Shown piece by piece: positions 8,405 to 63,087 of a stretch of DNA of 64,000 nucleotides. The translations under genes were made by a program, and so were the position numbers. Positions within the stretch are counted from its first letter, which is position 1, and each line of letters starts with the position of its first letter. Source of the DNA: an uncultured Gammaproteobacteria bacterium (GTDB taxonomy: Bacteria > Patescibacteriota > Microgenomatia > Daviesbacterales > UBA10151). The stretch is from NCBI GenBank assembly GCA_964649615.1, contig CAZYPW010000004.1:9153-73152 (forward strand), given 5' to 3'. The notes beneath the pieces are model-generated. The model was not told where the DNA came from. It ran no database searches and was given only the letters and a program-made list of their open reading frames with translations.

Positions 8405-9792
8405 GAATATTTTAAACTAGCAATTTTTTGTGCAATTGTCAAAGACTTATTTTTGGCAGTACCTGTATGATTTTTTACATCAAGCAAATCCAGAATATCT
8501 GCGCTTTTTAAATATTTTCCGATTTCCGGATTGCTCTCTAACAAATCTTCCATCTGGTTCACTTCTCCATTTTGAATAACCTCCCATGCTTTCATAGAGA
8601 TTTCTCTTAAAACTTCATGCATTTTTTGCCTGTTGGCACCTTTTTTAACAGCCTCAACAATAATTACCTCTGTTACAGAAAAAGGCCAATATGTTAATAA
8701 GTTTTTCGTTATTCGTTTATCGTTTATCGTTAATCCATCAATAATATTATTTGCAGATATTAACATTTCATCTATGCTTAAAAACATCTCAGGGATAGCA
8801 ACCCTTCTATTGGCAGAATCATCCAGAGTCCGCTCAAGTAACATGTGTGAAGCATTATCCCAGGACGTTCTGGATAAACTAACAACCAGTCTTGCAAGCG
8901 AGCAGATCTGTTCGGATTTAACAGGATTTTTCTTAAAAGGCATGGCAGATGAACCAACTTGTTTATCCCCAAATGGCTCCTGCCATTCTCCAAAATTTGC
9001 CGACTGCATAATACGCAAATCAAAAGCAAACTTATTCAAACTTTGCGCAATTGATGCAAGTAAATTCCCCAACCAAACCTCTATTTTTCTGGGAGATGTT
9101 TGATTTGTGATTTCATATGCTTCTATCCCCAGTTGCTCTAATACATTAACTTCCATCTCTTCGGCTTTTTTCTCATCCAGCAATTTTATATAACTTGCGG
9201 ATGTTCCCACCGCCCCTTTCATACCTTTGCCCTTTAAATTCTTTTTAACAAATTGTAAAAGTTCTAAGTCCATTAAAAGATCTTGCGCATAAAACGCAAA
9301 TCTATAACCTAACGTTGTAGGTTCTGCCGGTTGCAAGTGGGTATACCCCATACAAACAAAGCCAGCATATTGTTCAATTTTTTTGCCAAAACTTTTCAGC
9401 AGTTTAATTAATCCGTTTTCTATAATACTCAACGCTTCAGAAATTCTGATAGTTTCACCATTATCAGAAATATCCATTGAAGTAGCACCAAGGTGAATTT
9501 TTCCTCCCCCAATCTTTGCCTTTTCTGCAAACTCTTTGATAGCTGCAACAACATCATGCCTTACGTCTTTTTCAATTTCCCAAATTCTTTCTATATTCAA
9601 ATTATCCTGATGATTTTCTAAATCTTCCAGTTCTTCTTTAGATACCAAACCTTCTTCACTTTGAGCCCTTGCTAACTCTACCCAAACCTTTCTCCAGATT
9701 TTGTATTTATTTTCTTCAGACCAAATTTTCCTCATTTCGCCTGAGCCATACCTCCAGGAAAATACTGATGTATAATTTTTAAAATCTTTCAT
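8401..9792 (-). CDS. purB: adenylosuccinate lyase PurB
   Basis: Fumarate-lyase signature GSSAMPFKKNP and HLGATSMDI. Confidence 0.9.
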   Translation of the reverse strand: MKDFKNYTSVFSWRYGSGEMRKIWSEENKYKIWRKVWVELARAQSEEGLVSKEELEDLENHQDNLNIERIWEIEKDVRHDVVAAIKEFAEKAKIGGGKIHLGATSMDISDNGETIRISEALSIIENGLIKLLKSFGKKIEQYAGFVCMGYTHLQPAEPTTLGYRFAFYAQDLLMDLELLQFVKKNLKGKGMKGAVGTSASYIKLLDEKKAEEMEVNVLEQLGIEAYEITNQTSPRKIEVWLGNLLASIAQSLNKFAFDLRIMQSANFGEWQEPFGDKQVGSSAMPFKKNPVKSEQICSLARLVVSLSRTSWDNASHMLLERTLDDSANRRVAIPEMFLSIDEMLISANNIIDGLTINDKRITKNLLTYWPFSVTEVIIVEAVKKGANRQKMHEVLREISMKAWEVIQNGEVNQMEDLLESNPEIGKYLKSADILDLLDVKNHTGTAKNKSLTIAQKIASLKYS

Positions 9793-9794
9793 AA

Positions 9795-11330
9795 TTAATG
9801 CCTAAATGCCCTCCTTTTTGAAAATACCATAGTAATCCCCAGCTCATCAGCAGCATCTATTGAGGCTTTATCATTTACAGACCCGCCTTGCTGCAAAATT
9901 GCAGATATATCATATTGTGCAGCCAATCGTACGCAGTCGTCAAATGGGAAAAAGCTATCCGAAATTAAGATACCTTCTTTAGCATAGTCTGCTGCTTGCT
10001 CCAAAGCAATTTTGGTTGCCCCCACTCTTGAAGTTTGACCCGAACCAATACCGCGAGTCTGCGGAATTTCTTTATCTATTACAATGACTGCATTAGACCT
10101 GACTGCTTTGACTGCTTTAAAACCAAATTTCATCAACTCTAATTGTTTTTCTGTAGGCTTGTTTTTAGTTACAACCTCCCAGTCCTTAAAACTATCTTCT
10201 ATATTATCATCAAAATCCTGAAGTAATGCTGCACCGGAAAAATATTTAAGGTCCCATTTTTCTGATCTTACAGAAGGGATCTCACCGAAGGTATAAATCC
10301 CCATGCTCTTTCTGACCTTTTTCAATAACTCTAACGCTTGATCGCTTATACCCGGTACTGCCACAATATCTATATTTCCTTCTTTCTCATTTTTAAAAGT
10401 AGCAACCACTTTAGCAGCAGCTTCGTCCATTTTTTTATTTATCACCATCACTCCCCCAAAAGCAGAAACAGGATCTGCTTTAACAGCTCTATCTAGCGCT
10501 TCCTCTGCATCTTTCCCGGTTGCTATTCCGCAAGGGCTTAAATGTTTGATCACACAAGCCGCAGCTTCTTTAAATTGCCTGACTGTTTCCAGACCTGCAT
10601 AAATATCACCAATATTGGTACCGGATAATTCCCTGCCCCAAAGGTGTTTTAATTTTGAGAGAGGTGAATTTGTTTTCGGTAATAAATAAAATGCGCCCTG
10701 CTGATGAGGATTTTCTCCATAACGTAGAATATTTGTTTTTCGCAACGGAATTGTTATTTCGTTGGGAAACTCCTGCCTGCCGGCAGGCAGATCTCCTTCG
10801 GAAAAATAATTTCCAATTTGGCTGTCATAAAAAGATAAATGATAAAAAGATTTGGCTGCCAGCTCTTTTCTTTTTTGCACGCTCTTTATAGCATCATCCA
10901 ACTGACCATAATCATTTGAATCTACCATCACTACTACATTTTCATAATTTTTACCGGCTGCTCTAATCATTGTTGGACCCCCCACATCTATATTTTCAAC
11001 ACCGGGTTTCTGTTCAAATGGATAAAGATTACAAACAACAACATCAATTTGTGGAACACCTAATTTTTTTGCTTCTTCAATATGTTTAGGATTTTTCCGG
11101 TCAAACAATATGCCACTTTCTATTTGAAAAGAAATGGTTTTCATCCTACCATCAAAGCAGTCTCTGGGGTTTCCGGTAATTTCTTCAATTGGAGTAACTT
11201 CAATCCCACTTTTTTTAAGTGTTTCAAAAGTCCCGCCTGTGGAGATTATAGTGTAGCCATTTTTTACTAAAACTTTTGCAAAATCTTCTATGCCGGATTT
11301 GTCATATACACTTAAAAGCGCATACTTCAT
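9795..11330 (-). CDS. purH: bifunctional AICAR transformylase / IMP cyclohydrolase PurH
   Basis: N-terminal MGS-like domain (ALLSVYDKSGIEDFAK...ISTGGT) plus a C-terminal AICARFT domain. 511 aa. Confidence 0.9.
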   Translation of the reverse strand: MKYALLSVYDKSGIEDFAKVLVKNGYTIISTGGTFETLKKSGIEVTPIEEITGNPRDCFDGRMKTISFQIESGILFDRKNPKHIEEAKKLGVPQIDVVVCNLYPFEQKPGVENIDVGGPTMIRAAGKNYENVVVMVDSNDYGQLDDAIKSVQKRKELAAKSFYHLSFYDSQIGNYFSEGDLPAGRQEFPNEITIPLRKTNILRYGENPHQQGAFYLLPKTNSPLSKLKHLWGRELSGTNIGDIYAGLETVRQFKEAAACVIKHLSPCGIATGKDAEEALDRAVKADPVSAFGGVMVINKKMDEAAAKVVATFKNEKEGNIDIVAVPGISDQALELLKKVRKSMGIYTFGEIPSVRSEKWDLKYFSGAALLQDFDDNIEDSFKDWEVVTKNKPTEKQLELMKFGFKAVKAVRSNAVIVIDKEIPQTRGIGSGQTSRVGATKIALEQAADYAKEGILISDSFFPFDDCVRLAAQYDISAILQQGGSVNDKASIDAADELGITMVFSKRRAFRH

Positions 11331-12454
11331 GTTAGTATTTTTCTAAGTTCTCCTTTTTCTATTGCCTCTTTAATTTCCATTGCTACTCGCCTTCCCATAG
11401 AAATATTTTTCCCGTATAAATACCCGCTATATGGAGTGGCAAAAATCCCGGGACTTCCCGGCATTCGCGGGGAAACATCAAAAACAATAATTTCCTTTTT
11501 AGGAGGGCCAGGAATGATTATTGTTTGTAAACCAAACGGCCCTATGACTCCTGGCTTATATAGTTTCTGAGAAGCTTTCACAAATCTTTCTCCCATTGCA
11601 AATGCATCTTCTAGTAGAGATTCCAGTACAGTCACTGATACATGGCCTGCCTCTTCAAAAGTTATCCCATACTTATCTCTAACAAGTTTATAATCATCCG
11701 GCGCTACCTTCGTATATCCTTCTGCATTAGTTTGCCTTCTTGTATCTGTTCCTATTAATTCAACTCTTTTATGCAAAGGAGAATAGAAATAATTGAAGTT
11801 AACTTGAACACCTACTAAGTATTCTTCTAATATGGCTCTATCAAGAGCTTCTTGAGTGATTCTACCCTGTCCAATTAATTCTTGTGACCGAGAATAAAAA
11901 GTTTCAGGGGAGTTAACTATAAAAAATCCCCTCTCGAAACCAAGATATTTAGCCATTACTTTCACAACACAGGGGCCATCGATTTCGCTTGGATTTTTAA
12001 ATTGTTTCGGATATCTAATCCCTGCCTCTTCCATAATTTTATATTGATCCACATTATTCCCAGTTCCTCGCTCTTCACATTTTAATAAAAACTTGTTTCC
12101 AAACATGGGGACTTTAAATTTTTTCTCAATTGCATTGTAATCGTTTATATAAACCTCAAAAGACCTGTGGGGAATAAATATGGCATTTCTTTTTAAGAGT
12201 TCTTTTTGAACTTTCTCCGATAAAATATCTTTGAAATTTTCTAACTCAATAACTTCATCAACACAACCTATTTCTCCATTACTTTTGTAATATTTGGCAT
12301 AGGTTTTATCTCTACCCTTTTGCACAATTACCAAAGTTTTAAAACCTAAATCTTTAGCTCCCCTGCAAACATCTAACGCAGAGTGACTACCTAGAACGGC
12401 TATTGTAATATCAGAAAGTTTTAAGTTTTGAATTGTAGTTTTGAGTTTTGACAT
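11327..12454 (-). CDS. purP: archaeal-type 5-formaminoimidazole-4-carboxamide ribonucleotide synthetase PurP (paralogue 1)
   Basis: ATP-grasp PurP family (DUF1246/DUF1297). Motifs LGSHSALD, FYSPL..VEL.G.D.R..TN, PFGLQ and MGRRVAMEIK match PurP as recalled from Methanocaldococcus. Confidence 0.75.
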   Translation of the reverse strand: MSKLKTTIQNLKLSDITIAVLGSHSALDVCRGAKDLGFKTLVIVQKGRDKTYAKYYKSNGEIGCVDEVIELENFKDILSEKVQKELLKRNAIFIPHRSFEVYINDYNAIEKKFKVPMFGNKFLLKCEERGTGNNVDQYKIMEEAGIRYPKQFKNPSEIDGPCVVKVMAKYLGFERGFFIVNSPETFYSRSQELIGQGRITQEALDRAILEEYLVGVQVNFNYFYSPLHKRVELIGTDTRRQTNAEGYTKVAPDDYKLVRDKYGITFEEAGHVSVTVLESLLEDAFAMGERFVKASQKLYKPGVIGPFGLQTIIIPGPPKKEIIVFDVSPRMPGSPGIFATPYSGYLYGKNISMGRRVAMEIKEAIEKGELRKILT

Positions 12455-12467
12455 TTGAGTTTTGAGT

Positions 12468-13484
12468 TTAATCTAAAACCTCCTTTAGCTTATTTTGCGA
12501 AATTGCATTCTTAATCTCGCGGGCGATACGGCGTCCTGTAGACATTGGTTCATCATACAGTAAATATGTATATGGAGATCCATTAATAAAACAATTTGTC
12601 CCTGCAACTATTCGGGCTGAGATTTCTATTACATAAATTTCCTCAGAAGATGTAATAATTGTTTCCAGACAAAACGGCCCAAATAATCCTTTCGGAGAAA
12701 CTATTTTTTGAGATGTTTCAATAACTCTTTGAGCCATATCCACAGCATCTGCAACCATAGATTCCCGAACAGCCATTGGAATGTTTGCAACAACTTCAAA
12801 AGATGGTTCTATATTTAACCCTCTTTGGTTTTTAGCAGGAATCCTACCTAATGAGTCAACATTTGTCTCATATCTTTTATCAACACTCATTAACTCTACT
12901 TTTTTGGTTAACGGTGAATAAAAGAAATGAAAATAAACAGGTACTCCTATTACATATTCCTGAACCATAAACCGCTCTTCCGAAAAGGTTTTTAATTTTT
13001 CATCAAGTTCTTTCTGATTTCTGGCAGTAAAATACCCCTTCCCACCGGCAGCACCATATGATTTTACAATCACCGGCCTATCAGTCTTATCACCTTTTCT
13101 AAATCTGTGGGGAACCTTAATTCCTGCTTCTTCCATCCATATTCTTTGCATCTTTCTGTCCTCCTCCCAATCTAGTACTTTCTTATTTCCAAAATAAGGA
13201 ACTTTCATCTTTTTATTTTCATCCATTCCTAAATATGCCACAAAAGATCCATGTGGAATTATTATGCAATTATCTTTAAGTAACTTTCTTTCTAAGTTTG
13301 GGAAATCGCGCCAGGATTTAATTTTTATTATTTCATCAATGAAGTTTTCGTATGATTTATAAAGTGGAATTCTATCAGAAGTACAAACTACAGCAGTTTT
13401 AAAACCCTCCTGTTTTGCACCCTTGAGAATCTGCAGCGCAGAGTGAGAACCTAAAGTGACAATAGTTATATTTTTAGTTCCCAT
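12468..13484 (-). CDS. purP: archaeal-type PurP family protein (paralogue 2)
   Basis: Same family motifs as paralogue 1 (LGSHSALQILKGAKQEGF, FFYSPLTKKVELMSVDKRYETN, PFCLE, STGRRIAREIKN). About 45% identity to its neighbour by eye. Confidence 0.75.
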   Translation of the reverse strand: MGTKNITIVTLGSHSALQILKGAKQEGFKTAVVCTSDRIPLYKSYENFIDEIIKIKSWRDFPNLERKLLKDNCIIIPHGSFVAYLGMDENKKMKVPYFGNKKVLDWEEDRKMQRIWMEEAGIKVPHRFRKGDKTDRPVIVKSYGAAGGKGYFTARNQKELDEKLKTFSEERFMVQEYVIGVPVYFHFFYSPLTKKVELMSVDKRYETNVDSLGRIPAKNQRGLNIEPSFEVVANIPMAVRESMVADAVDMAQRVIETSQKIVSPKGLFGPFCLETIITSSEEIYVIEISARIVAGTNCFINGSPYTYLLYDEPMSTGRRIAREIKNAISQNKLKEVLD

Positions 13485-13486
13485 AA

Positions 13487-15222
<1,736 letters not shown>

Positions 15223-15234
15223 AATAATATTATA

Positions 15235-16755
15235 TCATTCCCACTCCATAGTTGCTGGAGGTTTGTTGGTGATATCATAAACTACACGATTTACTTCCGG
15301 AACTTCTGTCACAATCCGAACAGATATTTTTTCTAAAACCTCATAAGGCAATTTTGCAAAGTTTGCAGACATGGCATCTGTTGCTTCTATTGCTCTAATT
15401 GCTATTGTTTCACCATATGCGCGATTATCTCCCCTAACTCCGGTTGTTTTAATTCCAGTAAAAACAGCAAATGTTTGCCAGAGCTTTTCATTCTTTAATT
15501 CTTCAGTCACAATTGCATCTGCTTTTCTTAAAATTTCCAACTTTTCTTCAGTTACTTCCCCAATAATTCTGACAGCCAGACCAGGTCCGGGAAAAGGTTG
15601 TCTTTGGGTAATACTTTCAGGCAGTCCTAAAATATCTCCGATTTTTCTGACCTGGTCTTTATAAAAATTTCTTAAAGGCTCTACTAAAACTAATTTCATA
15701 TTTTCTGGTAATCCCCCTACATTATGATGTGACTTAATATTTTGTGCATGCTTGCTCCCCTTTGATTCAATTACATCAGGATAAATTGTTCCTTGCACCA
15801 AAAATTTTGCATTAATTTTCTTTGCTTCTTTATCAAATACTTCAATAAAGGTTTTCCCAATAGCTTTTCTTTTTTCTTCTGGGTCAGTTATACCTTTTAA
15901 TGCTTTTAGCATCTCTCTCGAAGCATCTATAATATCAACATTCATTTTGTAGCGATCTTTAAAAATCTTCTTTAGATTTTCTGTTTCACCCTCCCTCATT
16001 AATCCGGAGTCCACATAAACTGATGTTAAATTTTTACCAATTGCTTTATGTGCTAAAAGTGCTGCAACTGATGAATCAACTCCACCGGACAGTGCACAAA
16101 TTACTCTAGCTTCTCCAATTGAATCCTTTATATCTTCTATAATATTTTCTACAAAGTCTTCATTTATTTCTGATTTTTTTGGAGTGAACCCACATATCAT
16201 TAAAAAGTTTTCTAAAACTTGTGCGCCAAATTCGCTGTGCACAACTTCCGGATGAAATTGAATCCCATAAATTTTATCCTGGCGGTTTTCAATAACTGCA
16301 TAGGGAATTGTTTTTGTGGTAGCAAAATTTTCAAAACCTTTTGGCAATTTCACCACATTATCTCCATGACTCATCCAAACATTAAAACTCTTTGGTAAAT
16401 CTTTTAATAATTCTGAATTCTGAATTCCAGATTCTAAATTTAAAACTGCTGGTCCATATTCTTTTCTGTATCCAGGCTTAACTTCTCCGCCTAATAAATG
16501 ACACATTAATTGCTGTCCATAACAAATGCCTAAAATCGGAATTCCCAAATTAAAAATTTCTTTTTCAACAGTTGGTGAATTTTTTTCATAAACAGATGCC
16601 GGGCCTCCTGAAAGAATAATTCCCTTAGGTTTTAGTTCTTTTATTTTCTCCAATGCAACTTCGGGAGTTGCAATGTAAACTTCTACCCCTAATTCCCTGA
16701 TTCTTCTGGAAATTAAATGTGCGGTTTGTGATCCAAAATCAACTAGTATAATCAT
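15235..16755 (-). CDS. guaA: GMP synthase (glutamine-hydrolysing)
   Basis: N-terminal class-I GATase (MIILVDFGSQTAHLISRRIRELGV...ICYGQQL), ATP-PPase SGGVDSSV motif and C-terminal dimerisation domain. Confidence 0.95.
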   Translation of the reverse strand: MIILVDFGSQTAHLISRRIRELGVEVYIATPEVALEKIKELKPKGIILSGGPASVYEKNSPTVEKEIFNLGIPILGICYGQQLMCHLLGGEVKPGYRKEYGPAVLNLESGIQNSELLKDLPKSFNVWMSHGDNVVKLPKGFENFATTKTIPYAVIENRQDKIYGIQFHPEVVHSEFGAQVLENFLMICGFTPKKSEINEDFVENIIEDIKDSIGEARVICALSGGVDSSVAALLAHKAIGKNLTSVYVDSGLMREGETENLKKIFKDRYKMNVDIIDASREMLKALKGITDPEEKRKAIGKTFIEVFDKEAKKINAKFLVQGTIYPDVIESKGSKHAQNIKSHHNVGGLPENMKLVLVEPLRNFYKDQVRKIGDILGLPESITQRQPFPGPGLAVRIIGEVTEEKLEILRKADAIVTEELKNEKLWQTFAVFTGIKTTGVRGDNRAYGETIAIRAIEATDAMSANFAKLPYEVLEKISVRIVTEVPEVNRVVYDITNKPPATMEWE

Positions 16756-16766
16756 ATATTTTTTAC

Positions 16767-16848
16767 TGTCATCCTGAACAAAGTGAAGGATCTCTAGATT
16801 TACTCAAGAACAAGTCTAGAGATTCCTCTCTAATCGCTCGGAATGACA
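16767..16848. repeat. 82-nt imperfect palindromic (MITE/REP-like) element filling the purQ-guaA spacer
   Basis: tgtcatcctgaac...gctcggaatgaca termini are inverted repeats. Internal arms aggatctctagatt / gtctagagattcctc are also complementary. A related copy lies inside purL at 18655-18725. Confidence 0.6.
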
Positions 16849-16850
16849 AT

Positions 16851-17630
16851 TTATTTTCCTTCCTTTACAAACTGTACCATATCTTCAAAGATAAAAGCTC
16901 CATGTGGTTTTTCAATTTTTTCTCTTCTCCAATTTGGATATTGGGTTATATCCACAAATTTTTCTGGGTGTGGCATAAGTCCTAAAACTCTACCTGTTGG
17001 ATCTGTTACTCCGGCTATGGCATTTAAAGATCCATTTGGATTTTGGGGATAAGTTTGTGTAGGATTTCCATTACCATCAATATATCTGAAGATCACCAAA
17101 TTCTGTGCTTCTATTTTCTTCAGTGTCTCTGTGTTTGCAAAGAACTTTCCCTCTCCGTGATTTATCGCAAACCAGCCAATATTTTTTTCTCCCTTTAAAA
17201 ATACACATTTACTTTTTTCAAGTCTTAACTTTATCCATCTGCATTCAAAATGTCCGCTGTCATTAGATGTTAAAGTAGCATCCATTTCTCCCAGATTTCC
17301 AAAAGGCAATAATCCTGTTCTGATAAGAGTTTGGAAACCGTTACAAAGACCAACAATAATCCCTCCCTTATCTCTAAACTTTTCAATTTCCTTTTTTAAA
17401 AAACTCATAAGTTCCACTGCCAGAATTTTACCTGAAGCAATATCATCACCATAGGAAAATCCTCCAGGAAGTGCCAGAATATTAAAATTCCTTAAACTTT
17501 TGGATTTATCCCGTAGTTCATTAACATGAACAAATTTAGGGGAACCTCCAAACTTTTTGAAAGCATAGAAAAGTTCATTATCACAATTAGTCCCATCTGA
17601 CTGTAATATACAAACCTTTACACTCCTCAT
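16851..17630 (-). CDS. purQ: FGAM synthase glutaminase subunit PurQ
   Basis: VCILQSDGTNCD, LALPGGFSYGDD and catalytic GLCNGFQ. Start ATG overlaps the purL TGA in an ATGA arrangement; the ORF track extends 30 nt further. Confidence 0.85.
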   Translation of the reverse strand: MRSVKVCILQSDGTNCDNELFYAFKKFGGSPKFVHVNELRDKSKSLRNFNILALPGGFSYGDDIASGKILAVELMSFLKKEIEKFRDKGGIIVGLCNGFQTLIRTGLLPFGNLGEMDATLTSNDSGHFECRWIKLRLEKSKCVFLKGEKNIGWFAINHGEGKFFANTETLKKIEAQNLVIFRYIDGNGNPTQTYPQNPNGSLNAIAGVTDPTGRVLGLMPHPEKFVDITQYPNWRREKIEKPHGAFIFEDMVQFVKEGK

Positions 17631-20383
17631 CCGAATATTTCCTTCATTGGTTTCTGCCAAGCATCTTGTAATTGCTTCATATCCGCGCTAAATAATCCCT
17701 TAACTCCTAATTTCTCCTCTTTTATCGTTTTCCCTAATATCTTAAAAGGTATTCCTTTGAATAATTTCTTAGCATTTTCCTCATCATCTACTTCAACAAT
17801 AAAACATCCTGCTGTTTCGTTAAATAGAAAATCACCTCGAAGGTGGGCTTTGACTCCTTCGAAGTAAAGCTTTACTCCACAATTTCCTCCAACTGCCATT
17901 TCAAAAATTGCAGTAATTAATCCTCCTTCTGAAACATCATGAGACGCTAAAACCTGTCCACTAATAATTGCTTTGTGCACTTTCTTCAAAACCTTAGGTA
18001 GTAGTTTTAAATCCACTTTTGGTACACCTCCCAGGTGGGCCATGACTCCTGGGAGGTGAGCTGCTTGGCCTACCAAAACTACAGTTGATCCCGTCTTTTT
18101 AAAATCAGAAGATACTGTTTTTTTAACATCCGGTATTTTTCCGAAAACTGACATAACTAAAGTCGGTGGGCTATGTATTATTACTCCATTAGACCCCCGA
18201 TAGGTGGCAAATAAACTGTCTTTTCCGGAAATCACAGGCAAATTTAGCGCTTTCATAAAATCAACTACTGCATCTACAGCTCTATCTAATTTTCCCAACC
18301 ATTCTGCATCAGGATATGGCCATATATAGTTGTTTATCAAAGAGGCATTCTTATAATCTCCACCAACAGCAACATAATTTGAGATTGCCTCAGTTGCAGA
18401 CCAGATACTTCCCCAGTAAGAATCCTCTCTTGTTAACTTTGGATTAAGTCCGTGGGAAACAACTACTCCATAAGGTTTATCTAAAATTGGTTTTACAATG
18501 GCTGCATCTTGAGGTCCATCCATCCCTTCTCCGGCATATGGATGTAGCGCATTTGTTCCTTGAACATTGTGATCATAAAGCCTTAATATTGGTTCTTTAG
18601 AATTTACATCACCTGATGCTAAAACTTTTTCTAAAATCTTAGCCCAATCCACTTTGTCATTCTGAACGATTAGTGAAGAATCCCTAGATTTAATCTTGAG
18701 ATTCCTCGCTTCGCTCGGAATGACAGCGGGAGAAGTTGCCTTCATTACCCTTTGAGGCAATCCCCCAAACAAAAACTTCATTTCCAAATCTCCTACTTTT
18801 TCCTTACCATAAAAAACTTGTAACTTTTTACTTCCATCAAACTGCGCAATTTCAGTTGCTTCACTATTATATTTGTTAGCAATTTCCAAAAACTTTTTAA
18901 GATTCTTCTTAGGCAAGATTACCAACATTCTTTCTTGTGATTCTGAAACCCAAATCTCCCATGGTGCAAGTCCCGGATATTTAACAGGAGCCTTTTCTAG
19001 GTGTACCTTTACTCCTAACTTTTCTCCCATCTCTCCAATAGCAGATGAAAATCCTCCAGCTCCCAAATCCTGTACAGCCCTTATTAAATTTTTATCTCTA
19101 GCTTCTAAAATGGCGTCAAACATCCTTTTTTCCTCAATGGCATTACCAATTTGCACAGCAGTGGTATTAACTTCTATAGTTTTTTCGCTCATTACAGCAG
19201 AGGAAAAAGTTGCCCCATGTATCCCATCTCTGCCAGTCCTTCCTCCAACTACTACTCCTATATCACCAATCTCAGGAGAACCTTTTTTAGCTTTGCTTTT
19301 TGGTAAGATTCCATAAGCTCCCACTAACACAATTGGCTTGGCTTTAAAATCCTCATCAAAATGAAATGATCCATTGTTGGTAGGGATTCCTATTCTGTTT
19401 CCATAATCTTTCACTGCTGTAACTACTCTTTTTAAAATATAGTCAGGTGGTAAAGTTCCAGCAGGCAGTTTATTTTTATCTAAGCCAGGAGGGGCTAAAC
19501 AAAAGATATCTGTAGAAACTATAGCCTTTGCACCTTGCCCTGTGGCCACCACATCTCTAAAAACTCCCCCGGATCCGGTCATAGCTCCTCCGTATGGTTC
19601 AATCGCAGATGGAGCATTATGGGTTTCTGCTTTACCATTAATGGCCCATCCCCCGTAAAAATCCATTACTCCGGCATTATCAACAAATGCAGAAACTATA
19701 TTTTTATTGTGTTTCAAAGCTTCTTTTTTAAGACGAGTAAATAAAGGCTCTTTTTCTTTTCCATCAATAATTAGTTTGGCTTTAAAAGTTTTGTGAGCAC
19801 AATGTTCACTCCATGTTTGAGCAATAGTTTCCAGCTCCAAATCAGTTGGATCTCTTTTAATATTTTTAAAACAACTTTGAATTGTTTTCATTTCCTCAAG
19901 ATTTAAAAATAGTTTATACCTTGATAATTCCATTAATTCTTCACCAGTCATATTTCTTAATTTGATAATAGTAGTTTTACCTGAAGTTCCTTTAATTATT
20001 AATGTTTTCGGCTCTTCTGTAACTATATGTTCAACCATAGGATTAAAAAGGCCTTTTAAAACTTCTTTGCTGGGTGAATGAAGAAAACCATATTCATGAG
20101 AAGAATCGGCTGCAATTAATTTAATTCCTAAATCTTCTGAGGCTTTTAGAATAGATCCTACCTCAGGATTCATTACCCCAGGTTTGTAAGCAATTTCTAT
20201 GATTTCTTTAGCGCCTTCTATTATTGGAGAATTTAAAGTATATGTTTGAATAATACTTTCACATAAAAATTTTTCAGCTAATTCCTTGGCTTTCTTTTCT
20301 GAAACCCCTTCTAACCTGTATACCTTAGCTTGTTTTACATCTCCCTTATTCTCAATACTTTTAACCCTGACAACTTGTATCAT
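17627..20383 (-). CDS. purL: FGAM synthase PurS-PurL fusion (phosphoribosylformylglycinamidine synthase II with N-terminal PurS domain)
   Basis: A ~80-aa PurS-like N-terminus (MIQVVRVKSIENKG...) is fused to PurL AIRS-like tandem domains (EPYGGAMTGSGGVFRD, DLGAGGFSSAIGEM). The preferred ATG at 20383 immediately follows the purD stop. Confidence 0.9.
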   Translation of the reverse strand: MIQVVRVKSIENKGDVKQAKVYRLEGVSEKKAKELAEKFLCESIIQTYTLNSPIIEGAKEIIEIAYKPGVMNPEVGSILKASEDLGIKLIAADSSHEYGFLHSPSKEVLKGLFNPMVEHIVTEEPKTLIIKGTSGKTTIIKLRNMTGEELMELSRYKLFLNLEEMKTIQSCFKNIKRDPTDLELETIAQTWSEHCAHKTFKAKLIIDGKEKEPLFTRLKKEALKHNKNIVSAFVDNAGVMDFYGGWAINGKAETHNAPSAIEPYGGAMTGSGGVFRDVVATGQGAKAIVSTDIFCLAPPGLDKNKLPAGTLPPDYILKRVVTAVKDYGNRIGIPTNNGSFHFDEDFKAKPIVLVGAYGILPKSKAKKGSPEIGDIGVVVGGRTGRDGIHGATFSSAVMSEKTIEVNTTAVQIGNAIEEKRMFDAILEARDKNLIRAVQDLGAGGFSSAIGEMGEKLGVKVHLEKAPVKYPGLAPWEIWVSESQERMLVILPKKNLKKFLEIANKYNSEATEIAQFDGSKKLQVFYGKEKVGDLEMKFLFGGLPQRVMKATSPAVIPSEARNLKIKSRDSSLIVQNDKVDWAKILEKVLASGDVNSKEPILRLYDHNVQGTNALHPYAGEGMDGPQDAAIVKPILDKPYGVVVSHGLNPKLTREDSYWGSIWSATEAISNYVAVGGDYKNASLINNYIWPYPDAEWLGKLDRAVDAVVDFMKALNLPVISGKDSLFATYRGSNGVIIHSPPTLVMSVFGKIPDVKKTVSSDFKKTGSTVVLVGQAAHLPGVMAHLGGVPKVDLKLLPKVLKKVHKAIISGQVLASHDVSEGGLITAIFEMAVGGNCGVKLYFEGVKAHLRGDFLFNETAGCFIVEVDDEENAKKLFKGIPFKILGKTIKEEKLGVKGLFSADMKQLQDAWQKPMKEIFG
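18655..18725. repeat. 71-nt palindromic element inserted in-frame inside purL coding sequence
   Basis: tgtcattctgaacgattagtgaagaatccctagatttaatcttgagattcctcgcttcgctcggaatgaca shares termini and inner arms with 16767-16848. The gtcat...atgac core is 69 nt (23 codons) and encodes a linker ...ATSPAVIPSEARNLKIKSRDSSLIVQNDK... without breaking the frame. Confidence 0.6.
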
Positions 20384-21678
20384 CTTTGTAATCTTTGAAG
20401 ATCCCTCCAACCAATATCAGTTCTATAATGCAAATTATCTCCTTCAATACTAATAAGCGCCATGGCGTCATATGCTTTTTTTCTTGCCTCAACTAAATCC
20501 TTACCTTCTCCCACAAGATGAAATACCCTACCGCCATTTGCATAGAATTTATTACCTTTCCTTTTAATCCCTGCCCCATAAATTGATATACGAGGTAACC
20601 GCATAGCCTGTTCTAATCCAAAAATTTGTTTACCCTTAACGTTTGAATAATCATCAGGATATCCTTTTGAACAACCAGCAATACTTATACGAACCTTTTC
20701 ATCAAATTCGATTTTTAGTTGATTAAGCCTTTTTTCTAAAACTGTTTCGACTATATCCACATAATCTGTTTTTATGCTTGGCAAAATAACCTCTGCTTCC
20801 GGATCTCCCCACCTGCAATTAAACTCAATAATCTTAACCCCATTCTTTGTTAGCATACCTCCTAGATATAAAATTCCCTTATACGGTCTTCCTTCTTCCG
20901 TCATGCCAGAGAGTGTCGGCCTGATAATTGTTTGTTCTATATTGCGAATAATCGAAGTAGAGATAGCACCTGTTGGAGCAACACTACCTATACCGCCTGT
21001 GTTTGGCCCCTTATCACCATCATAAATCGTTTTATGATCTTGGGAAGATTTGGTAATAATGAAATTTTCACCATCACATATGGCAAAAAGTGTAAATTCC
21101 TCACCCACGAGTGCTTCTTCAATTAGAAATGTTTCACCTGATTTTTCAAACTTACTCATTTCTCTGATTGCCTTTTTTGCCTCTTTTTTATTTTCTGCTC
21201 TTATAACTCCTTTTCCTAAAGCAAGACCCGAGGCTTTGATAAATAAAAGCTGATCAGAAAGTTTGTTGATGTAATCAATTGCTTCTTTTTGATTGGTAAA
21301 GGACTTAAACCTCGGAACCGGAAGATTATATTTGACCATAAAGTTTCTGGCCCAATCTTTACTCCATTCGAGTTCTGATGCTTCTTGAGTGGGACCAAAA
21401 GCTTTGATTCCCAATTTTTGGAATTTATCAACATAACCTGCCGCAATAATATCATCTTGCCCAACATCTACTAAACCTATTTTTTCCTTTTTACAAACCT
21501 TTAAAATTCCATCAAAATCCATCATTCCAATTTCCGGATAATTTTTGATTTTGTCATTTCTAAAATCTGTTAAACCATTACCGGGCGTTATAATTACTTT
21601 TTTTACCAATTTAGATTTGGCATAAGTTACTGCTAAAGCGTGTTCTCTACCATTTTGTCCAATTACTAAAATATTCAT
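20380..21678 (-). CDS. purD: phosphoribosylamine-glycine ligase PurD
   Basis: MNILVIGQNGREHALA N-terminus and an ATP-grasp core. The ATG overlaps the purN stop (ATGA). Confidence 0.9.
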   Translation of the reverse strand: MNILVIGQNGREHALAVTYAKSKLVKKVIITPGNGLTDFRNDKIKNYPEIGMMDFDGILKVCKKEKIGLVDVGQDDIIAAGYVDKFQKLGIKAFGPTQEASELEWSKDWARNFMVKYNLPVPRFKSFTNQKEAIDYINKLSDQLLFIKASGLALGKGVIRAENKKEAKKAIREMSKFEKSGETFLIEEALVGEEFTLFAICDGENFIITKSSQDHKTIYDGDKGPNTGGIGSVAPTGAISTSIIRNIEQTIIRPTLSGMTEEGRPYKGILYLGGMLTKNGVKIIEFNCRWGDPEAEVILPSIKTDYVDIVETVLEKRLNQLKIEFDEKVRISIAGCSKGYPDDYSNVKGKQIFGLEQAMRLPRISIYGAGIKRKGNKFYANGGRVFHLVGEGKDLVEARKKAYDAMALISIEGDNLHYRTDIGWRDLQRLQR

Positions 21679-23763: not shown

Positions 23764-24018
23764 TTACTTTGGATTAATATTAATCTGGCTTTTTAATAAA
23801 TCCATTTCTTCCTGAAAAATCTTATCAAAGTTTGGAACTTTAGATAGAAGAAAATATCTAACAGAGTTACCAGTTTGATCTTGAGAGTTTAATTCTTCAA
23901 TTTTTGCCATATCTTCATCTGTTAAAACTGGGGCTATTTTGATATATGCTGCCTGTAACGCTAAATTTACTAACTCATCAGCTACTTTTTGTTGATTCTG
24001 TGTTAAGTCATTCATCAT
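23764..24018 (-). CDS. hypothetical small acidic protein, co-oriented with and abutting the 633-aa gene
   Basis: 84 aa. Its start abuts the stop of the upstream 633-aa ORF (coordinates share 24018). Confidence 0.4.
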   Translation of the reverse strand: MMNDLTQNQQKVADELVNLALQAAYIKIAPVLTDEDMAKIEELNSQDQTGNSVRYFLLSKVPNFDKIFQEEMDLLKSQININPK

Positions 24019-25919
24019 TATTGAGTCTCCTCTCTAACTTGTTGTGTAATGTTCTCACTAATCTCTTGCCATTTTCTTGGGTCTAAACCTGAACCAGCTG
24101 TTTTTAATTTAAACCAAGTATCTAAATTATCGCTATTAACATTCATTTTCCAGACATTCCCTAACACAATTTTATCACCATCTACTACTGGGGAGAGAAG
24201 ACCAGGTCTTTTATTCTCTTTCGAATATATTATTGAAGCTCTTATTCTAGAAGTAAAATCACCAACCATCTGATCAAAAGTTCCTGAACCATAATAAGAA
24301 TCGAGCTCCTTTTTTAATAATTCAAGTGTCTTGAGCATTTTAGGATCACCTTCTGAGTGTGCGATATTTTGGCTCCCCAGCTGAGCCGCCTCCTGGGCTA
24401 CATCAGGATTCATTGCTTTCGCAAGGTCAGCCTCAGCTAATCCTTTTACAGAGTATCCTTCTATATTATAGGGATCTGCGCTAGGGTTATTTGGTTGTAT
24501 TTTTTCTTGAAAATCATCACGTATAGTAAAATCATTCCAAGCATATTGGTTGTTCCCTAATCCTCTTCCACTTGCAAATTCCTGTAATGTAGTTGGCTCT
24601 GTAGTCATAAAAGGACTACGAGTCTCAGGTGGAGGTTTTGGTCCTGACTCTCCTGCCCCAGCGCTTGCTGGAACTCTAGAATCTTGGCCAGACTGTACAG
24701 CGCCTATCGTATCCCTTGGAATCCCAGCAAGTAACACTAATACCAGCGGGAGAACTGCTAATCTACAACGTCTTCTCTGTTCCCCTGTTGCTCTTATTCT
24801 CATTAAAGCATCCACTTTACGGGCTATCGCTGGATCAACCTTAGATTCTCTTTCACCCCACCTTTCCCTAAATCCTCTAATCTTATTTACTAATGCATCA
24901 ACACCCAGTACACCAATTCCTATTAAATCTCTCATAAATTCTCTAACTCTTGATGCATAACTAAGTCCCTCTAATTCAGAAAATTTCCCTTCTATTGTGA
25001 CTGGGCGGGATTCCGATGAACTTCGTGGACCATTTGAAGGAGGAGGTATTACTATTACAGCTGGATCTGAGGGTAGTTCTGCAGGAGCTGGTTCTTCAGC
25101 AAAACCTCCAAAAGTATGCCCCATCTCCTCATGAACAACTCCAATTTTATCTCTAACTGGATCAGATGGGAAAAGTTGAGGAACCTCTTTTGATGGAAAA
25201 GCAGTTGTCTCTTCTTTTTTGGGAACTTGTAATAACCTGCTGTCTTTTAGACGTGCTATGGCTGCTTGTTTGTCTTCTTCTTGAGACCCAGTTGAGGTGA
25301 GAGGATTTTTCCAGATCCTTCTGGCTTCTTCAGCTATCCTAGATTTTTCCATTGGGTTACTTTCATCTAGAGCATTTGGGAAAGCTTCTGTATATGGAAT
25401 ACTACTATCTTCAAGTACCCGGGCTTCCTCCTGATATGTTCTTAACTGACCCTCTAGGCGCTCTATCATCTGGGGGCTACTCCATCTACTTGCTCTTTGT
25501 TGCTCTAATTCAGCTTTTGTATTAGCTATATCATCTTTTGCACTAGCTATTAACCCGCTTACATCTAAACCTTCATTCCTCTCGTAGATCTCTCCAGTTT
25601 CTGGATTTTTGAATGTAGTTTTTAAAGCATGCTCAGGACGGTCGGTTATAACTAAAATACCATGTCCAGACATACCCCTTAATCCTTTTTGAAACGTCCT
25701 GAATGCAGCAAACTGATTCCGTTGCTGATTAGTTAAAAGCCCGGTATCTGCTAAATCATCAATTTCTATATTAGGAGCTATATCTCTATGGAGTCTCTCT
25801 ATCTTCACTCCCCATCTGTGAGTAGTTCCATTGAAGGCTTTCATTACTTGTTCTCTAGTGGCAACGCCTTCTGGAGGAGGCGTTGCTTCAACTGGAGGAC
25901 GATCGGACAGTTCAGCCAT
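24018..25919 (-). CDS. large hypothetical Pro/Glu-rich protein with HExxH motif; composition atypical for the locus
   Basis: 633-aa ORF noticeably GC-richer than its neighbours (stretches of ~45-50% G+C by eye). Contains VVHEEMGHTFGG (HExxH), proline-rich linkers and one internal hydrophobic segment (AVLPLVLVLLAGIP). No family recognised. Confidence 0.5.
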   Translation of the reverse strand: MAELSDRPPVEATPPPEGVATREQVMKAFNGTTHRWGVKIERLHRDIAPNIEIDDLADTGLLTNQQRNQFAAFRTFQKGLRGMSGHGILVITDRPEHALKTTFKNPETGEIYERNEGLDVSGLIASAKDDIANTKAELEQQRASRWSSPQMIERLEGQLRTYQEEARVLEDSSIPYTEAFPNALDESNPMEKSRIAEEARRIWKNPLTSTGSQEEDKQAAIARLKDSRLLQVPKKEETTAFPSKEVPQLFPSDPVRDKIGVVHEEMGHTFGGFAEEPAPAELPSDPAVIVIPPPSNGPRSSSESRPVTIEGKFSELEGLSYASRVREFMRDLIGIGVLGVDALVNKIRGFRERWGERESKVDPAIARKVDALMRIRATGEQRRRCRLAVLPLVLVLLAGIPRDTIGAVQSGQDSRVPASAGAGESGPKPPPETRSPFMTTEPTTLQEFASGRGLGNNQYAWNDFTIRDDFQEKIQPNNPSADPYNIEGYSVKGLAEADLAKAMNPDVAQEAAQLGSQNIAHSEGDPKMLKTLELLKKELDSYYGSGTFDQMVGDFTSRIRASIIYSKENKRPGLLSPVVDGDKIVLGNVWKMNVNSDNLDTWFKLKTAGSGLDPRKWQEISENITQQVREETQ

Positions 25920-25984
25920 ACTTAATTTAGTCTATTAAATAGCTTATCAAAATACAAGTTAAGATGATATACTAAAACAAGATT

Positions 25985-32564: not shown

Positions 32565-33013
32565 TACCCGCCGACTCCTCTTTTAAACTCCACCTTACCG
32601 GCATAAGCAACTGCCGGATTAACAGGCTGTTTCTTCTTTTCTTCTTTTTTCATCTCTGTTGTCTGTTTTTCCTGCTGCTCGGTTTGTAGTCTTCTCTGCT
32701 CTTTCTGCTTGTTTTCCTTCCTGACTTTTTGTTGTTCTGCTTCTAAATTTTTAAGCCAACCTCTGGTGTAAACAAGTTGTTTTTGTCTGTCTAGTTCTCT
32801 TTTTTGATCCTCTTGTTGCTTTTGTTGAACTTGTTGGGGAGTAGGTTGAGTGCCAACAACAGATTGTACTCCCTGTTCGATTGCCTCACCCACTGAGTCT
32901 TTGGCATCCTTGGTTACTTCTGCTACTGCCCCTTTCATCTCTCCTGCAAATTGTTTAACTCCACCCCCAGAATCAGACATGGATATAGTATAAAGTAAAA
33001 ACTCAAAAGTCAA
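32564..33013 (-). CDS. hypothetical low-complexity Gln/Lys/Glu-rich protein
   Basis: 149-aa ORF whose stop abuts the cysS start. Likely true start is internal (MSDSGGG...). No domain recognised. Confidence 0.35.
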   Translation of the reverse strand: MTFEFLLYTISMSDSGGGVKQFAGEMKGAVAEVTKDAKDSVGEAIEQGVQSVVGTQPTPQQVQQKQQEDQKRELDRQKQLVYTRGWLKNLEAEQQKVRKENKQKEQRRLQTEQQEKQTTEMKKEEKKKQPVNPAVAYAGKVEFKRGVGG

Positions 33014-33090
33014 AAGTGTTGTTGTTTTCTTTGAAAACTTTTAATTTTTGAATTGTAATTTTGAATTTTGCATTTTGACTTTTGAATTAT
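32990..33090. repeat. AT-rich intergenic repeat with (CAAAAGT)/(TTTTGA) tandem units, related to 44680-44777
   Basis: aaaactcaaaagtcaaaagt ... ttttgaattttgcattttgacttttgaatt. Both ends match the spacer upstream of frr at 44680-44777. Confidence 0.4.
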
Positions 33091-36405: not shown

Positions 36406-38037
36406 TTAATTTACAGTATCAGAATTAAATATTTCTGCTGCAGCCCTAATTATTTCATCATCTGCTGCTACCTCTATATTGGCAATATCTTCTTCTCTGG
36501 CAGGATGAGTACCTAAAATAGTGGCCACTTTAATTTGCCTGGCTAAAATATCAGACAGTATGGATTCTAAAATTTCCCTATTTTTGGGGGCTTCCAGAAT
36601 TCTTTGGTGGAAAGAATAGGGAACCTCAATCACTACTGTGGTATCTGTACATTCAGAAATATTAATAGAACGAAGCAGCGCTTCAAGTGAAAAATTATAA
36701 GGCCTAATTGTTTCTAAAACAAAATTCCATTTCTCTTTAAGCTTTAAAATATCAGAAGAGGTAGAAATATTAAATTGGTTGTTGTCAGTTTTCTGTTCTC
36801 TGTTTTCTGTTTCTGGTTTTTCAGTTGTCTGTTTATTTGTTTCAGAAACTGATTCACTGGCAACTGATTGACTTTCACCTGACAACTGAGAACTGAGACC
36901 TGATAACTGACATACCTCCACCATTACCAATTCCAAAGGCAAACTTTGGATTGAGGTAAACTTTAATTTTTCTAAAGAAGTTTGCAAAAGGTCTAAAATT
37001 TTTATTAGATCTGCATTATTAAAATCCTTAGACAAACTTTCTAATTTAGAATAATTTTCTTCTGCATATTGAGGTTTAACTAAACTTTCACCCAAACCAT
37101 TTTTTATAAAAACTATATTTCTTAAAACATCCATTAAACTACTGGTAAAAATTTTTGCATCAATTCCTTTGGCAAAAATTTTATCTAAACTGATTAAAGC
37201 AGCTTTCATATCTTTTTTTGATAAATTATCTAAAAGCAAAAAAAGATCTTCTGTTTGCCCGCTTTTGAAAATTTCTGCTAAAACTTCCACAGTTTTCTTC
37301 CCTTCAACTGATGAAACCTGATCCAAAAATTTAATTCCATCTCTAAAACTGCCTTCTGCTTTTTTAGCTAAAAATTCCAATGCTTCTTTATTAATCTCCA
37401 ATTTTTCTTCTTTCACTACTTTACTTAAAGCCTCAATTAACTGCTCAGTTGTGGCTGGTTTAAAATCCAACCTTTGAACCCTAGAGAGAATTGTTTGGGG
37501 AACTTTTTGCACATCAGTAGTTGCTAAAATAAAAAGGGTGTGTGAGGGTGGCTCTTCCAAAGTTTTAAGCAGGGCATTAAAAGCCTCAGTGGTTAACATA
37601 TGCACCTCATCAATAATATAAACTTTTTTAGAAGCCTGCGTTGGTGCTAGTTTTATTTTTTCCCTAAGGGCTCTAATATCATCAATTCCTCTATTTGAGG
37701 CAGCATCTATTTCTATAAGGTCCAGATTACTGCCATCTGTGATGGACATACAGGTTTGACATTTATTGCATGGAATGTTATTAGTTTGTAGTTTGTAGTT
37801 CGTAGAATTATTGTTTTTACTACCAACTACCAACTCTGAACTCTGAACTAATTCACAATTAACCATTTTGGCTAAAATTCTGGCAGTAGAAGTTTTGCCT
37901 GTCCCCCTGGGGCCTACAAAAAGATAGGCATGGGATAATTTATTTGCCAAAAATGATGAAAATAAAAGTTTTTTAATAGCTTCCTGGCCAACTAGTTGAT
38001 CCAGAGTTTGGGGGCGGTATTTTAAATAAAATGCCAT
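36406..38037 (-). CDS. dnaX: DNA polymerase III subunit gamma/tau
   Basis: YRPQTLDQLVGQEAI, Walker A GPRGTGKTS, zinc module CNKCQTC and Walker B DEVHML. Carries two repetitive/palindromic in-frame insertions (see findings). Confidence 0.9.
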   Translation of the reverse strand: MAFYLKYRPQTLDQLVGQEAIKKLLFSSFLANKLSHAYLFVGPRGTGKTSTARILAKMVNCELVQSSELVVGSKNNNSTNYKLQTNNIPCNKCQTCMSITDGSNLDLIEIDAASNRGIDDIRALREKIKLAPTQASKKVYIIDEVHMLTTEAFNALLKTLEEPPSHTLFILATTDVQKVPQTILSRVQRLDFKPATTEQLIEALSKVVKEEKLEINKEALEFLAKKAEGSFRDGIKFLDQVSSVEGKKTVEVLAEIFKSGQTEDLFLLLDNLSKKDMKAALISLDKIFAKGIDAKIFTSSLMDVLRNIVFIKNGLGESLVKPQYAEENYSKLESLSKDFNNADLIKILDLLQTSLEKLKFTSIQSLPLELVMVEVCQLSGLSSQLSGESQSVASESVSETNKQTTEKPETENREQKTDNNQFNISTSSDILKLKEKWNFVLETIRPYNFSLEALLRSINISECTDTTVVIEVPYSFHQRILEAPKNREILESILSDILARQIKVATILGTHPAREEDIANIEVAADDEIIRAAAEIFNSDTVN

Positions 38038-39116: not shown

Positions 39117-39449
39117 TTAAACTTGTTTTTTCCATTGTCCACCTAACAAATGAAAATGTAAATGGGGTACATGCTGTGCTTTACCGCCATTTACTACTAC
39201 CCTGTAAAGATTTTCTTTCAAATTATACTCTGAAACTAATTTTTTTGCCACTTGAAAAATCTCTACCAAAAGTTGACCATGATCTTTTTCTAAATTACTA
39301 AATGCAGGAATATGCATTTTGGGAACTATCACCAAGTGTATATCTGCTGCTGGGTTAATGTCTGGAAAAACTATTAAACTTTCTGATTCAAAGCTAAATT
39401 CCTTTGGTATTTCTTTATTGATAATTTTACAAAAAATACAATCACTCAT
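39117..39449 (-). CDS. HIT-family nucleotide hydrolase
   Basis: Histidine triad HLHFHLLGG near the C-terminus. N-terminal CIFCKI. Confidence 0.85.
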   Translation of the reverse strand: MSDCIFCKIINKEIPKEFSFESESLIVFPDINPAADIHLVIVPKMHIPAFSNLEKDHGQLLVEIFQVAKKLVSEYNLKENLYRVVVNGGKAQHVPHLHFHLLGGQWKKQV

Positions 39450-45332: not shown

Positions 45333-45460
45333 GTTTATTAAATTCTAAATACTAATATCGAAATTCGAAACAAATTCTAATATTCAAAATTCAAAAGTTT
45401 TAAACATTTGAAAATTAGAATTTTGATATTGTTTCGTATTTAGGATTTCGTGCTTCGAGT

Positions 45461-62680: not shown

Positions 62681-63087
62681 TGTAGAGCCTTCCCTACCTC
62701 ACTTCTAGCTCTTAAGATCTTACCTTTTAAGGTTTGCAGCGAAGATCTAAGTTGAGCAGCAGATGAATACTTTTGAGCCCTTTGAAAGGCAATAGCCTCA
62801 GCTGCATAAGTGATCTGATAGTCTGCAGATTTAATGGCATCATCTATTCCCCCAAAAGCCACCCTGGTTTCTGTGATTCCTTTCCTTCTCCTTAACTCCT
62901 CCATAATAGCTGCCAGCTTTGAGAGATCATCTTCAAATCTATTACAGACCTTTTGATTAATGTTATAAAGGTTGGACGAGGCATGAGCAGGTATTATGTA
63001 GTATGTATTAAGTATTAAGAATAAGATTCCCATAATACCTAATACTTTATACTTACCGCCGAAGGCAGGGCGAGTTATACTTTTCAT
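62677..63087 (-). CDS. hypothetical secreted protein
   Basis: 136-aa ORF. The internal start MGILFLILNTYYIIPAHASS (at 63033) gives a signal peptide with an AHA cleavage site and is preceded by an agg SD. The gtataaagtatta motif lies just upstream. Confidence 0.35.
   Translation of the reverse strand: MKSITRPAFGGKYKVLGIMGILFLILNTYYIIPAHASSNLYNINQKVCNRFEDDLSKLAAIMEELRRRKGITETRVAFGGIDDAIKSADYQITYAAEAIAFQRAQKYSSAAQLRSSLQTLKGKILRARSEVGKALQ

Follow-up and report, generated by a model that had tools for sequence, protein, structure and literature searches.

We analyzed a 64,000-nt stretch of contig CAZYPW010000004.1 (hereafter the window), from an uncultured bacterium placed in the Daviesbacterales of the Patescibacteriota, in which a 71-nt palindrome lies inside a purine biosynthesis gene. 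The host gene, purS-purL, occupies positions 17627-20410 on the minus strand. By Pfam and homology it encodes a formylglycinamidine ribonucleotide (FGAM) synthase II whose N-terminal part is weakly PurS-like. The open reading frame (ORF) has Pfam matches to FGAR-AT_linker, AIRS and AIRS_C, and its product is 100% identical to an annotated Candidatus Daviesbacteria protein. A preliminary description of the window had called the gene a purS-purL fusion. Its PurS match is weak (E value of 9e-4, under the Pfam cut-off).

The palindrome is imperfect, lies at 18655-18725 (minus strand) and has the sequence TGTCATTCTGAACGATTAGTGAAGAATCCCTAGATTTAATCTTGAGATTCCTCGCTTCGCTCGGAATGACA. Its termini are TGTCATTCTGAAC and GCTCGGAATGACA, with 15-nt ends that are 87% complementary. 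The core from GTCAT to ATGAC measures 69 nt, or 23 codons, and the purL frame stays open across it. That frame reads TSPAVIPSEARNLKIKSRDSSLIVQNDKVDW, to which the element itself contributes (A)VIPSEARNLKIKSRDSSLIVQND(K), about residues 566-588 of PurL. Folded as RNA, both strands form a single long hairpin, at -30.6 kcal/mol for the plus strand (z = -7.0) and -35.2 kcal/mol for the minus strand (z = -8.4). On either strand, 0 of 200 shuffles were as stable. Coordinates, termini and core length as first described are thus borne out by sequence and fold. A scan of window positions 13000-19500 with the Rfam covariance models gave no match at E <= 1.

Two tagged, self-folding hairpin units, set head to head as a dimer, make up the 71-nt element. 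Arm 1 (18698-18725, minus strand), which is 5' on the coding strand, consists of a TGTC tag, the hairpin ATTCC-GA-GC-GAA-GC-GA-GGAAT and the tail CTC. Arm 2 (18655-18684, plus strand) has the same tag, the hairpin ATTCT-GA-AC-GATTA-GT-GA-AGAAT and the tail CCC, and belongs to a sub-family marked by the motif CGATTAG. Between them is a 13-nt centre, TAGATTTAATCTT (18685-18697), itself a small palindrome; such centres vary between copies. Hairpins with this kind of tag form a superfamily of repetitive extragenic palindromic (REP) sequences, tagged CGTC or TGTC, that includes the Rickettsia palindromic elements (RPE) RPE-4 and RPE-6 and the repeat dRS3 (Di Nocera, De Gregorio and Rocco 2013, BMC Genomics 14:522; PMC3733652).

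To characterize the arms we scanned one genome per species for both termini 40-70 nt apart, which returned at least 120 stretches. By our own estimate about 2 chance matches to the terminus pattern are expected in the whole collection. The matches listed have the arm consensus (T)GTC-AT-YCY-GA-RC-GNA-GY-GA-RGR-AT-CTC around a variable centre. Each arm holds a 21-nt hairpin of 5 bp, tandem G.A, 2 bp and a GNA loop, and the window arms fit this consensus. The terminal and inner triplets are Watson-Crick complementary in 174 of 182 arms. At the inner pair, 152 arms have G-C, 27 have A-T and 3 have a mismatch. In elements whose two arms differ in their triplets, pairing within the arm is retained in 52 of 54 arms. 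In an alignment of 106 distinct arms, pairing holds for 96.8% of cells, with 96 compensatory cells at three pairs and pairs 5-25 and 6-24 invariant (AU/UA). None of 500 shuffles matched this, and with the partner shifted by 1-3 columns 14-54% of cells paired. The scan pattern demanded two inverted termini and left the 3' partners within the arms unconstrained. As those partners nevertheless pair, each arm folds independently, as a 21-nt hairpin.

The flanks of 126 related elements show no target-site duplication, one of the checks proposed at the outset: direct repeats were no commoner there than in shuffled pairings. GTC is preceded by T in 98 of these elements and by C in 18, and A occupies position +1 in 87. 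Spanning-ORF statistics for matches in high-GC genomes were dropped as unreliable, long spurious open frames being common there.

A sister copy lies close by. The purQ (16851-17660) and guaA (15235-16755) genes are separated by 95 nt, nearly all of it taken up by an 82-nt head-to-head dimer at 16767-16848 with arms at 16767-16794 and 16819-16848. As the preliminary description had it, this copy has the same termini as the purL copy and related inner arms; the two are 77% identical. It also passed the suggested folding check (z = -4.4), like the purL copy. We compared the spacer with those of related loci, labeled L here, the PurL homologues being labeled P. At the DNA level, purQ and guaA share an ATGA overlap in L001, L235 and L236 and the site is empty. 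Gene calls show an overlap on the contig of P0004 too. L002 is like the window in having a 95-nt spacer that contains an element. That element (L002 13705-13799) is the same heterodimer as in the window, with one AACAAAGT arm and one CGATTAG arm. Its orientation is opposite and its TGTCAT termini are mutated to ATAT, which suggests either an independent insertion or a flip in place.

Related copies occur well beyond the purine cluster. The purL copy is 92% identical to one inside a class I aminoacyl-tRNA synthetase gene (L144), with compensatory changes within the arms. Against L001, identity is 84% for an intergenic copy and 83% for the copy that occupies the orthologous purL site. The purL genes of these genomes agree at only 36-47% of four-fold degenerate sites, which is saturation. 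As the element is far more alike than that, it is not an old linker drifting neutrally. The sub-family arm GTCATYCYGARCGATTAGDGARGRAT (CGATTAG) was found in 74 metagenome stretches of 27-45% G+C. Copies of this sub-family are also in spacers of other CPR-like contigs (candidate phyla radiation, the Patescibacteria). In the metagenomes, 20 of 75 sub-family arms fall within open frames 120 codons long or longer, and 19 of those 20 are read as ...SLI(V/A)(Q/R)(D/N)D. The opposite orientation, GTC ATT CTG AAC GAT TAG, is a stop; likewise in frame 1 of arm 2 in the window the forward reading gives TAG and the complement SLIVQND. This bias is what a selection filter predicts. The preliminary description had proposed a mobile palindromic element that tolerates, or targets, in-frame insertion. 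Dispersed copies, empty sites in relatives and the match in an unrelated gene agree with mobility and tolerance. Targeting finds no such backing, as the filter explains the data.

Clear internal hosts are PurL, a class I aminoacyl-tRNA synthetase, TsaD, DnaX, PheS, DNA polymerase I, a GHMP kinase and ribosomal protein L1. In the class I synthetase two variants share one site, which separates the catalytic domain from the anticodon-binding domain. TsaD has three variants at one site. In DnaX two variants are found between domain III and the C-terminal domain. The window dnaX (36406-38037, minus strand) itself has an in-frame 130-nt palindrome of another family (36783-36912, TGTCAG...CTGACA) between domain III and DnaX_C, with the peptide CQLSGLSSQLSGES...ENREQKTDN, and the metagenome relatives L159 and L173 have a TGTC dimer of the purL type at that very site. 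Besides its TGTC dimer, tsaD encodes repeat-like peptides elsewhere in the protein, EHLRGEAEMTPGTHLGGE in L169 and NLWIPDQVRDDKG in L190. Among the genome matches listed (L003-L122), all 82 record titles shown are of metagenome-assembled genomes. They represent Acidobacteriota, Chloroflexota, Verrucomicrobiota, Bacteroidota, Nitrospirota, Planctomycetota, Omnitrophota, Firmicutes, Proteobacteria and the CPR. The arm family is also found in 38 IMG/VR contigs (L197-L234), with 45 dimers at a G+C fraction of 0.41-0.71.

Within PurL the element sits in the sole hypervariable stretch of an alignment of 120 homologues (59-100% identity), between the conserved motifs GLPQRVMKA and EWIxxLEKVL. Linkers with no recognized repeat have a median length of 23 residues, and the window linker has 31, of which 23 come from the element. 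An alignment to the Thermotoga PurL structure ends at query residue 566. That to the Thermus PurL structure is gapped and poor over residues 566-589, at the junction of the two half-enzymes. In an AlphaFold model (predicted template modeling score of 0.80), residues 564-585 have a predicted local distance difference test score (pLDDT) under 50 and are flanked by well-modeled domains, consistent with the element lying in a flexible loop.

The closest PurL homologues have no such segment at this site. P0004, P0058, P0084 and P0099 have related peptides there, and orthologues sharing the segment had been named as grounds for giving up an insertion. These carriers are scattered, though. On a neighbor-joining PurL tree built with the variable columns excluded, 11 carriers of the family need 11 changes and five carriers of the SLIVQxD sub-type need five. 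On such sequence grounds the four are better taken as marking a hotspot than an ancestral linker, and the insertion reading stands. An assembly artefact is ruled out, as related in-frame copies recur in independent assemblies.

The same linker has received many other repeats. Signatures of at least nine repeat families are present in the PurL linker of 58 of the 120 homologues; the other 62 linkers have no recognizable repeat. At the DNA level the linker is significantly structured in all seven purL genes analyzed (z of -2.8 to -7.1), with at least four different families. Four of the seven, the window gene included, hold dimers tagged TGTC or CGTC. P0104 (L237 7741-7800) and P0096 are 91% identical in PurL outside the linker and have repeats of different families, VILRAKPEGSHEILRYAQND and HSSKRSASRIDSGQARMT respectively, which indicates fast replacement. 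The PurL linker is thus a recurrent, fast-turnover landing site for hairpin repeats.

A second hotspot in the gene is marked by an unrelated 34-nt palindrome at 18025-18058 (minus strand; CACCTCCCAGG, 12 nt, CCTGGGAGGTG), which encodes HLPGVMAHLGG. It falls in the PurL loop after VVLVGQ, where residues 785-794 have a pLDDT under 50. Palindromes of the AHLRGE...SHLGG type are found at this loop in P0007, P0008, P0010, P0013 and P0019-22. In L237 the second hotspot has a TGTC REP (8456-8507) with the stem ATCCCGAA. Its loop holds a further arm-like hairpin, ACCCTGAGCGAGGTCGAAGGGT, so that one unit apparently sits nested inside the other.

The window also has a single TGTC-tagged REP of another family at 13541-13589 (plus strand), made of TGTC, an 8-bp stem ATCCCGGA, a 26-nt loop, TCCGGGAT and CCA. 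Its end lies 8 nt before the probable start codon of purA (ATG at 13598). The preliminary description had it (13541-13588) as a degenerate third copy of the 71-nt element. The TGTC tag and an AT-initiated stem are indeed shared, but a decayed copy is ruled out, as this is a single hairpin of a different family. It is a CGTC-1-type REP whose loop is enlarged, and it belongs to the same superfamily as the 71-nt element. At the same position in the purA spacer, L002 has a CGTC-1-type head-to-head dimer that ends at the same flank (ATGACAATGG.AG), and upstream of purA in L001 and L235 there is only a promoter-like spacer. A loose scan of the window for generic GTCAT hairpins gave 6 against 3.5 expected, which is not above chance, and the specific copies alone count.

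Other features of the window are noted for completeness. Among the genes of the purine cluster is an archaeal-type PurP (DUF1246/DUF1297; 12468-13484). Relatives carry PurP twice, side by side, and the neighboring ORF at 11327-12454 may be the second of the pair in the window. The strongest local fold (-39.4 kcal/mol) is a GC-rich stem-loop at 25831-25920 with the core GCAACGCCT / AGGCGTTGC, within the first ~25 codons of the ORF at 24018-25919 (minus strand). GCTGAGG tandem repeats are present at 40041-40130, inside the ORF at 39449-40561, and further inverted-repeat regions are at 45347-45448, 63001-63110 and 33000-33088. The GC skew is negative nearly throughout positions 1-64000, at a G+C of ~0.35.

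We consider it probable that the 71-nt element is a non-autonomous REP-type repeat that landed in the purL linker, with a sister between purQ and guaA. Each unit of ~28 nt comprises an unpaired (T/C)GTC tag, the 21-nt hairpin and a 3-nt tail, two units being set head to head around a variable centre. One such dimer inserted in the linker joining the PurL halves and its sister between purQ and guaA. Copies survive where frame, orientation and protein architecture permit: the purL copy persists because it is made of whole codons, lies in its stop-free orientation and occupies a low-confidence, probably loop-like segment with the flanking domains intact. Copies would spread as single-stranded DNA, with the help of an enzyme acting in trans (HUH/Y1-like or other) that recognizes tag and hairpin together. 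The linker hotspots could reflect a high insertion flux together with purifying selection everywhere else. Insertion into resident hairpins possibly helps to make them, and the nested unit in L237 is compatible with this.

Several observations count against this account. Aligning PurL to its orthologues, as the preliminary description had advised, gave a mixed result. The closest homologues lack the segment, but the window linker does not equal an orthologous linker with 23 residues added: it has no PKTEK, the motif that usually precedes the conserved W, and linker sequence was therefore also lost or overwritten. No gene family recurs beside the copies in an all-against-all ORF clustering of 120 loci, which returned only ABC transporters, response regulators and similar genes. 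No IS200/IS605 (Y1) homologue was detected in the 1.87 Mb of the window and 238 loci, with a four-protein IS200-type profile, its queries verified against PDB entries, that could miss REP-associated tyrosine transposases (RAYTs). The 64 kb visible of the source genome have two clear copies. Translation of the insert as a hydrophilic loop of ~23 residues is predicted from the open frame. The superfamily assignment follows the text and supplements of Di Nocera et al. rather than their consensus sequences, and CGTC REPs most commonly have a CCA tail, whereas the window element has CTC and a stem with two G.A mismatches.

The main rival is that the hairpin at the PurL boundary is itself selected, as a translational pause, for mRNA processing or stability or as a DNA signal, the REPs being raw material. 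We regard this as unlikely. It would fit the structured linkers in all seven purL genes, drawn from at least four families, the repeat signatures in nearly half of the homologues (58 of 120) and the replacement, instead of simple loss, of the elements in P0104 and P0096. However, 62 linkers have no recognizable repeat, and the same elements are found in spacers and many unrelated proteins. The second PurL loop and the linkers of DnaX, TsaD and class I synthetases behave alike, for which tolerance of disordered linkers is the simpler explanation. There is also a bolder reading. The 21-nt TGTC hairpin is nearly constant in the sampled loci, from 27% to 71% G+C and across dozens of phyla, has no transposase of its own and might be spread by a conserved host function or a broadly shared trans-acting enzyme. 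CPR linkers would then be largely successive REP insertions, with the hairpin at domain boundaries possibly selected; we hold this to be unlikely. That CPR dimers continually overwrite the interdomain linkers of essential enzymes (PurL, a class I synthetase, TsaD and DnaX), as this reading would have it, is to the same degree doubtful.

The two remaining alternatives are less probable still. The element could be a classical miniature inverted-repeat transposable element (MITE), derived by deletion from an insertion sequence and ending in ~28-bp inverted repeats bound by a DDE transposase; the arm hairpin would then be incidental. The inverted termini of ~28 nt, variable centre, dispersed copies and presence/absence polymorphism would all suit a MITE. 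We nevertheless think this improbable, as the 126 elements have no target-site duplication beyond chance, neither a parent element nor a transposase adjoins any copy, and strong covariation within arms, even where the two arms differ, is unexpected for plain protein-binding repeats. Very improbable is an old, vertically inherited PurL linker, palindromic by chance, with a local duplication as its intergenic look-alike. Related peptides do occupy the same site in P0004, P0058, P0084 and P0099, but the five sub-type carriers require as many changes on the PurL tree and the same arm family is present across dozens of phyla. The purL copy is also at least as close to copies in other genes and genomes (92% and 84%) as to the orthologous one (83%), where four-fold sites are saturated. 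Local duplication, which had been named as a possible refutation, is contradicted by those same copies. A REP-type dimer inserted in the linker therefore remains our preferred explanation.

On this explanation, in-frame "selfish" palindromes, known mainly from Rickettsia, extend to the CPR/Patescibacteria. As CPR genomes are small and gene-dense, nearly any insertion strikes a gene. Particular interdomain linkers of essential enzymes would be recurrent, rapidly turning-over landing sites. Such inserts may inflate protein divergence, create spurious "hypothetical" peptides and make orthology and structure prediction harder in metagenome-assembled genomes. The strong covariation within arms points to the tagged 21-nt hairpin as a concrete substrate with which to ask how CGTC-type REPs move with no transposase of their own.

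The closest known system is the CGTC/TGTC REP superfamily. As described by Di Nocera et al., CGTC REPs have loops of 4-5 nt and 3-nt tails that are mostly CCA, are chiefly head-to-head dimers with intragenic copies and lack a dedicated transposase. The window element most resembles the CGTC-2 geometry, having in common with it an unpaired (C/T)GTC tag, a stem that starts A-T and T-A, 8-9 stem positions, a 3-5-nt loop, a tail length of 3 nt, mostly head-to-head dimers, intragenic in-frame copies and no dedicated transposase. Both window copies begin TGTC on each arm. Their stems start A-T/T-A in a hairpin of 21 nt, deviating by the tandem G.A at two stem positions. The arm loop is 3 nt, or 5 nt counting the closing pair, against the 4-5 nt of the description. 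The tail is CTC or CCC on the window arms and CCA on the REP at 13541-13589 and the L002 units. Both window elements, and those recovered elsewhere with a pattern that required inverted termini, are inverted pairs. A dedicated transposase was found neither by clustering of neighbors in 120 loci nor by the IS200/Y1 profile over 1.87 Mb. The hairpin has the length of units such as CGTCATCCTGAACCTGTTTCAGGAT from Sphingomonadales and Novosphingobium (L010, L047), which the same pattern recovered. Tag, hairpin length and CTC tail are as in CGTC-2-like units, and the difference is the GAGCGNAGCGA core, a conserved tandem G.A with a GNA loop. In the supplementary tables of that paper we found no CGTC entry with this arm sequence or with the peptides translated from it.

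The classical in-frame RPEs are alike in being palindromes inside housekeeping genes that are not destroyed. They differ, comparing by description, in being ~150 bp long and Rickettsia-specific; the window element is 71 nt, has another arm and comes from a Daviesbacteria genome, in an unrelated phylum. It shares with the RPE-1 type the in-frame behavior. Di Nocera et al. equate the CGTC-1 and CGTC-4 units of R. conorii with RPE-6 and RPE-4, and the CGTC-1 units of Neisseria with dRS3. According to their supplementary table, CGTC-1 units that lie inside R. conorii genes encode VIPAKAGI. CPR loci carry canonical units such as TGTCATTCCCGCGAAAGCGGGAATCCA and TGTCATCCTGAACTTGATTCAGGATCTC, and the PurL linker of P0010 (L002) reads VIPANAGIQ...RLRGDD, encoded by a canonical CGTC-type dimer, which is the same kind of unit.

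REPINs (REP doublets that form hairpins) and bacterial interspersed mosaic elements (BIMEs) likewise are inverted hairpin doublets that fold into a larger hairpin, make no target duplication and are non-autonomous. They have a GTAG tag and a cognate RAYT gene that the same REPs flank, whereas the window tag is TGTC and no RAYT or Y1 gene was found beside the copies; the profile that returned no Y1 transposase in the window or the 238 loci is one that could miss RAYTs. Membership among MITEs likewise finds no support in the flanks, where repeats are not in excess, or in the 120 loci, where no parent element was seen. REP dimers in PurL have a precedent: the supplementary table of Di Nocera et al. 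has two GTAG-type dimers (GTAG-17) in Opitutus terrae PurL (Oter_3711). These too are in frame in a formylglycinamidine synthase, but one that is a large single chain, with GTAG-type units at other positions.

The preliminary description knew of no such element in this kind of genome. That agrees with the searchable literature, whose full text gave nothing relevant on the arm sequences, on AKAGIQ or on palindromic elements or MITEs in CPR/Patescibacteria, although the kind of element itself is known. In 2013 the hosts of CGTC REPs came from five phyla; the range is now wider and includes the CPR/Patescibacteria. What is new here is the CPR host lineage, as far as the searchable literature goes, together with the arm variant, how widely it is distributed, and the recurrent, fast-turnover linker hotspots.

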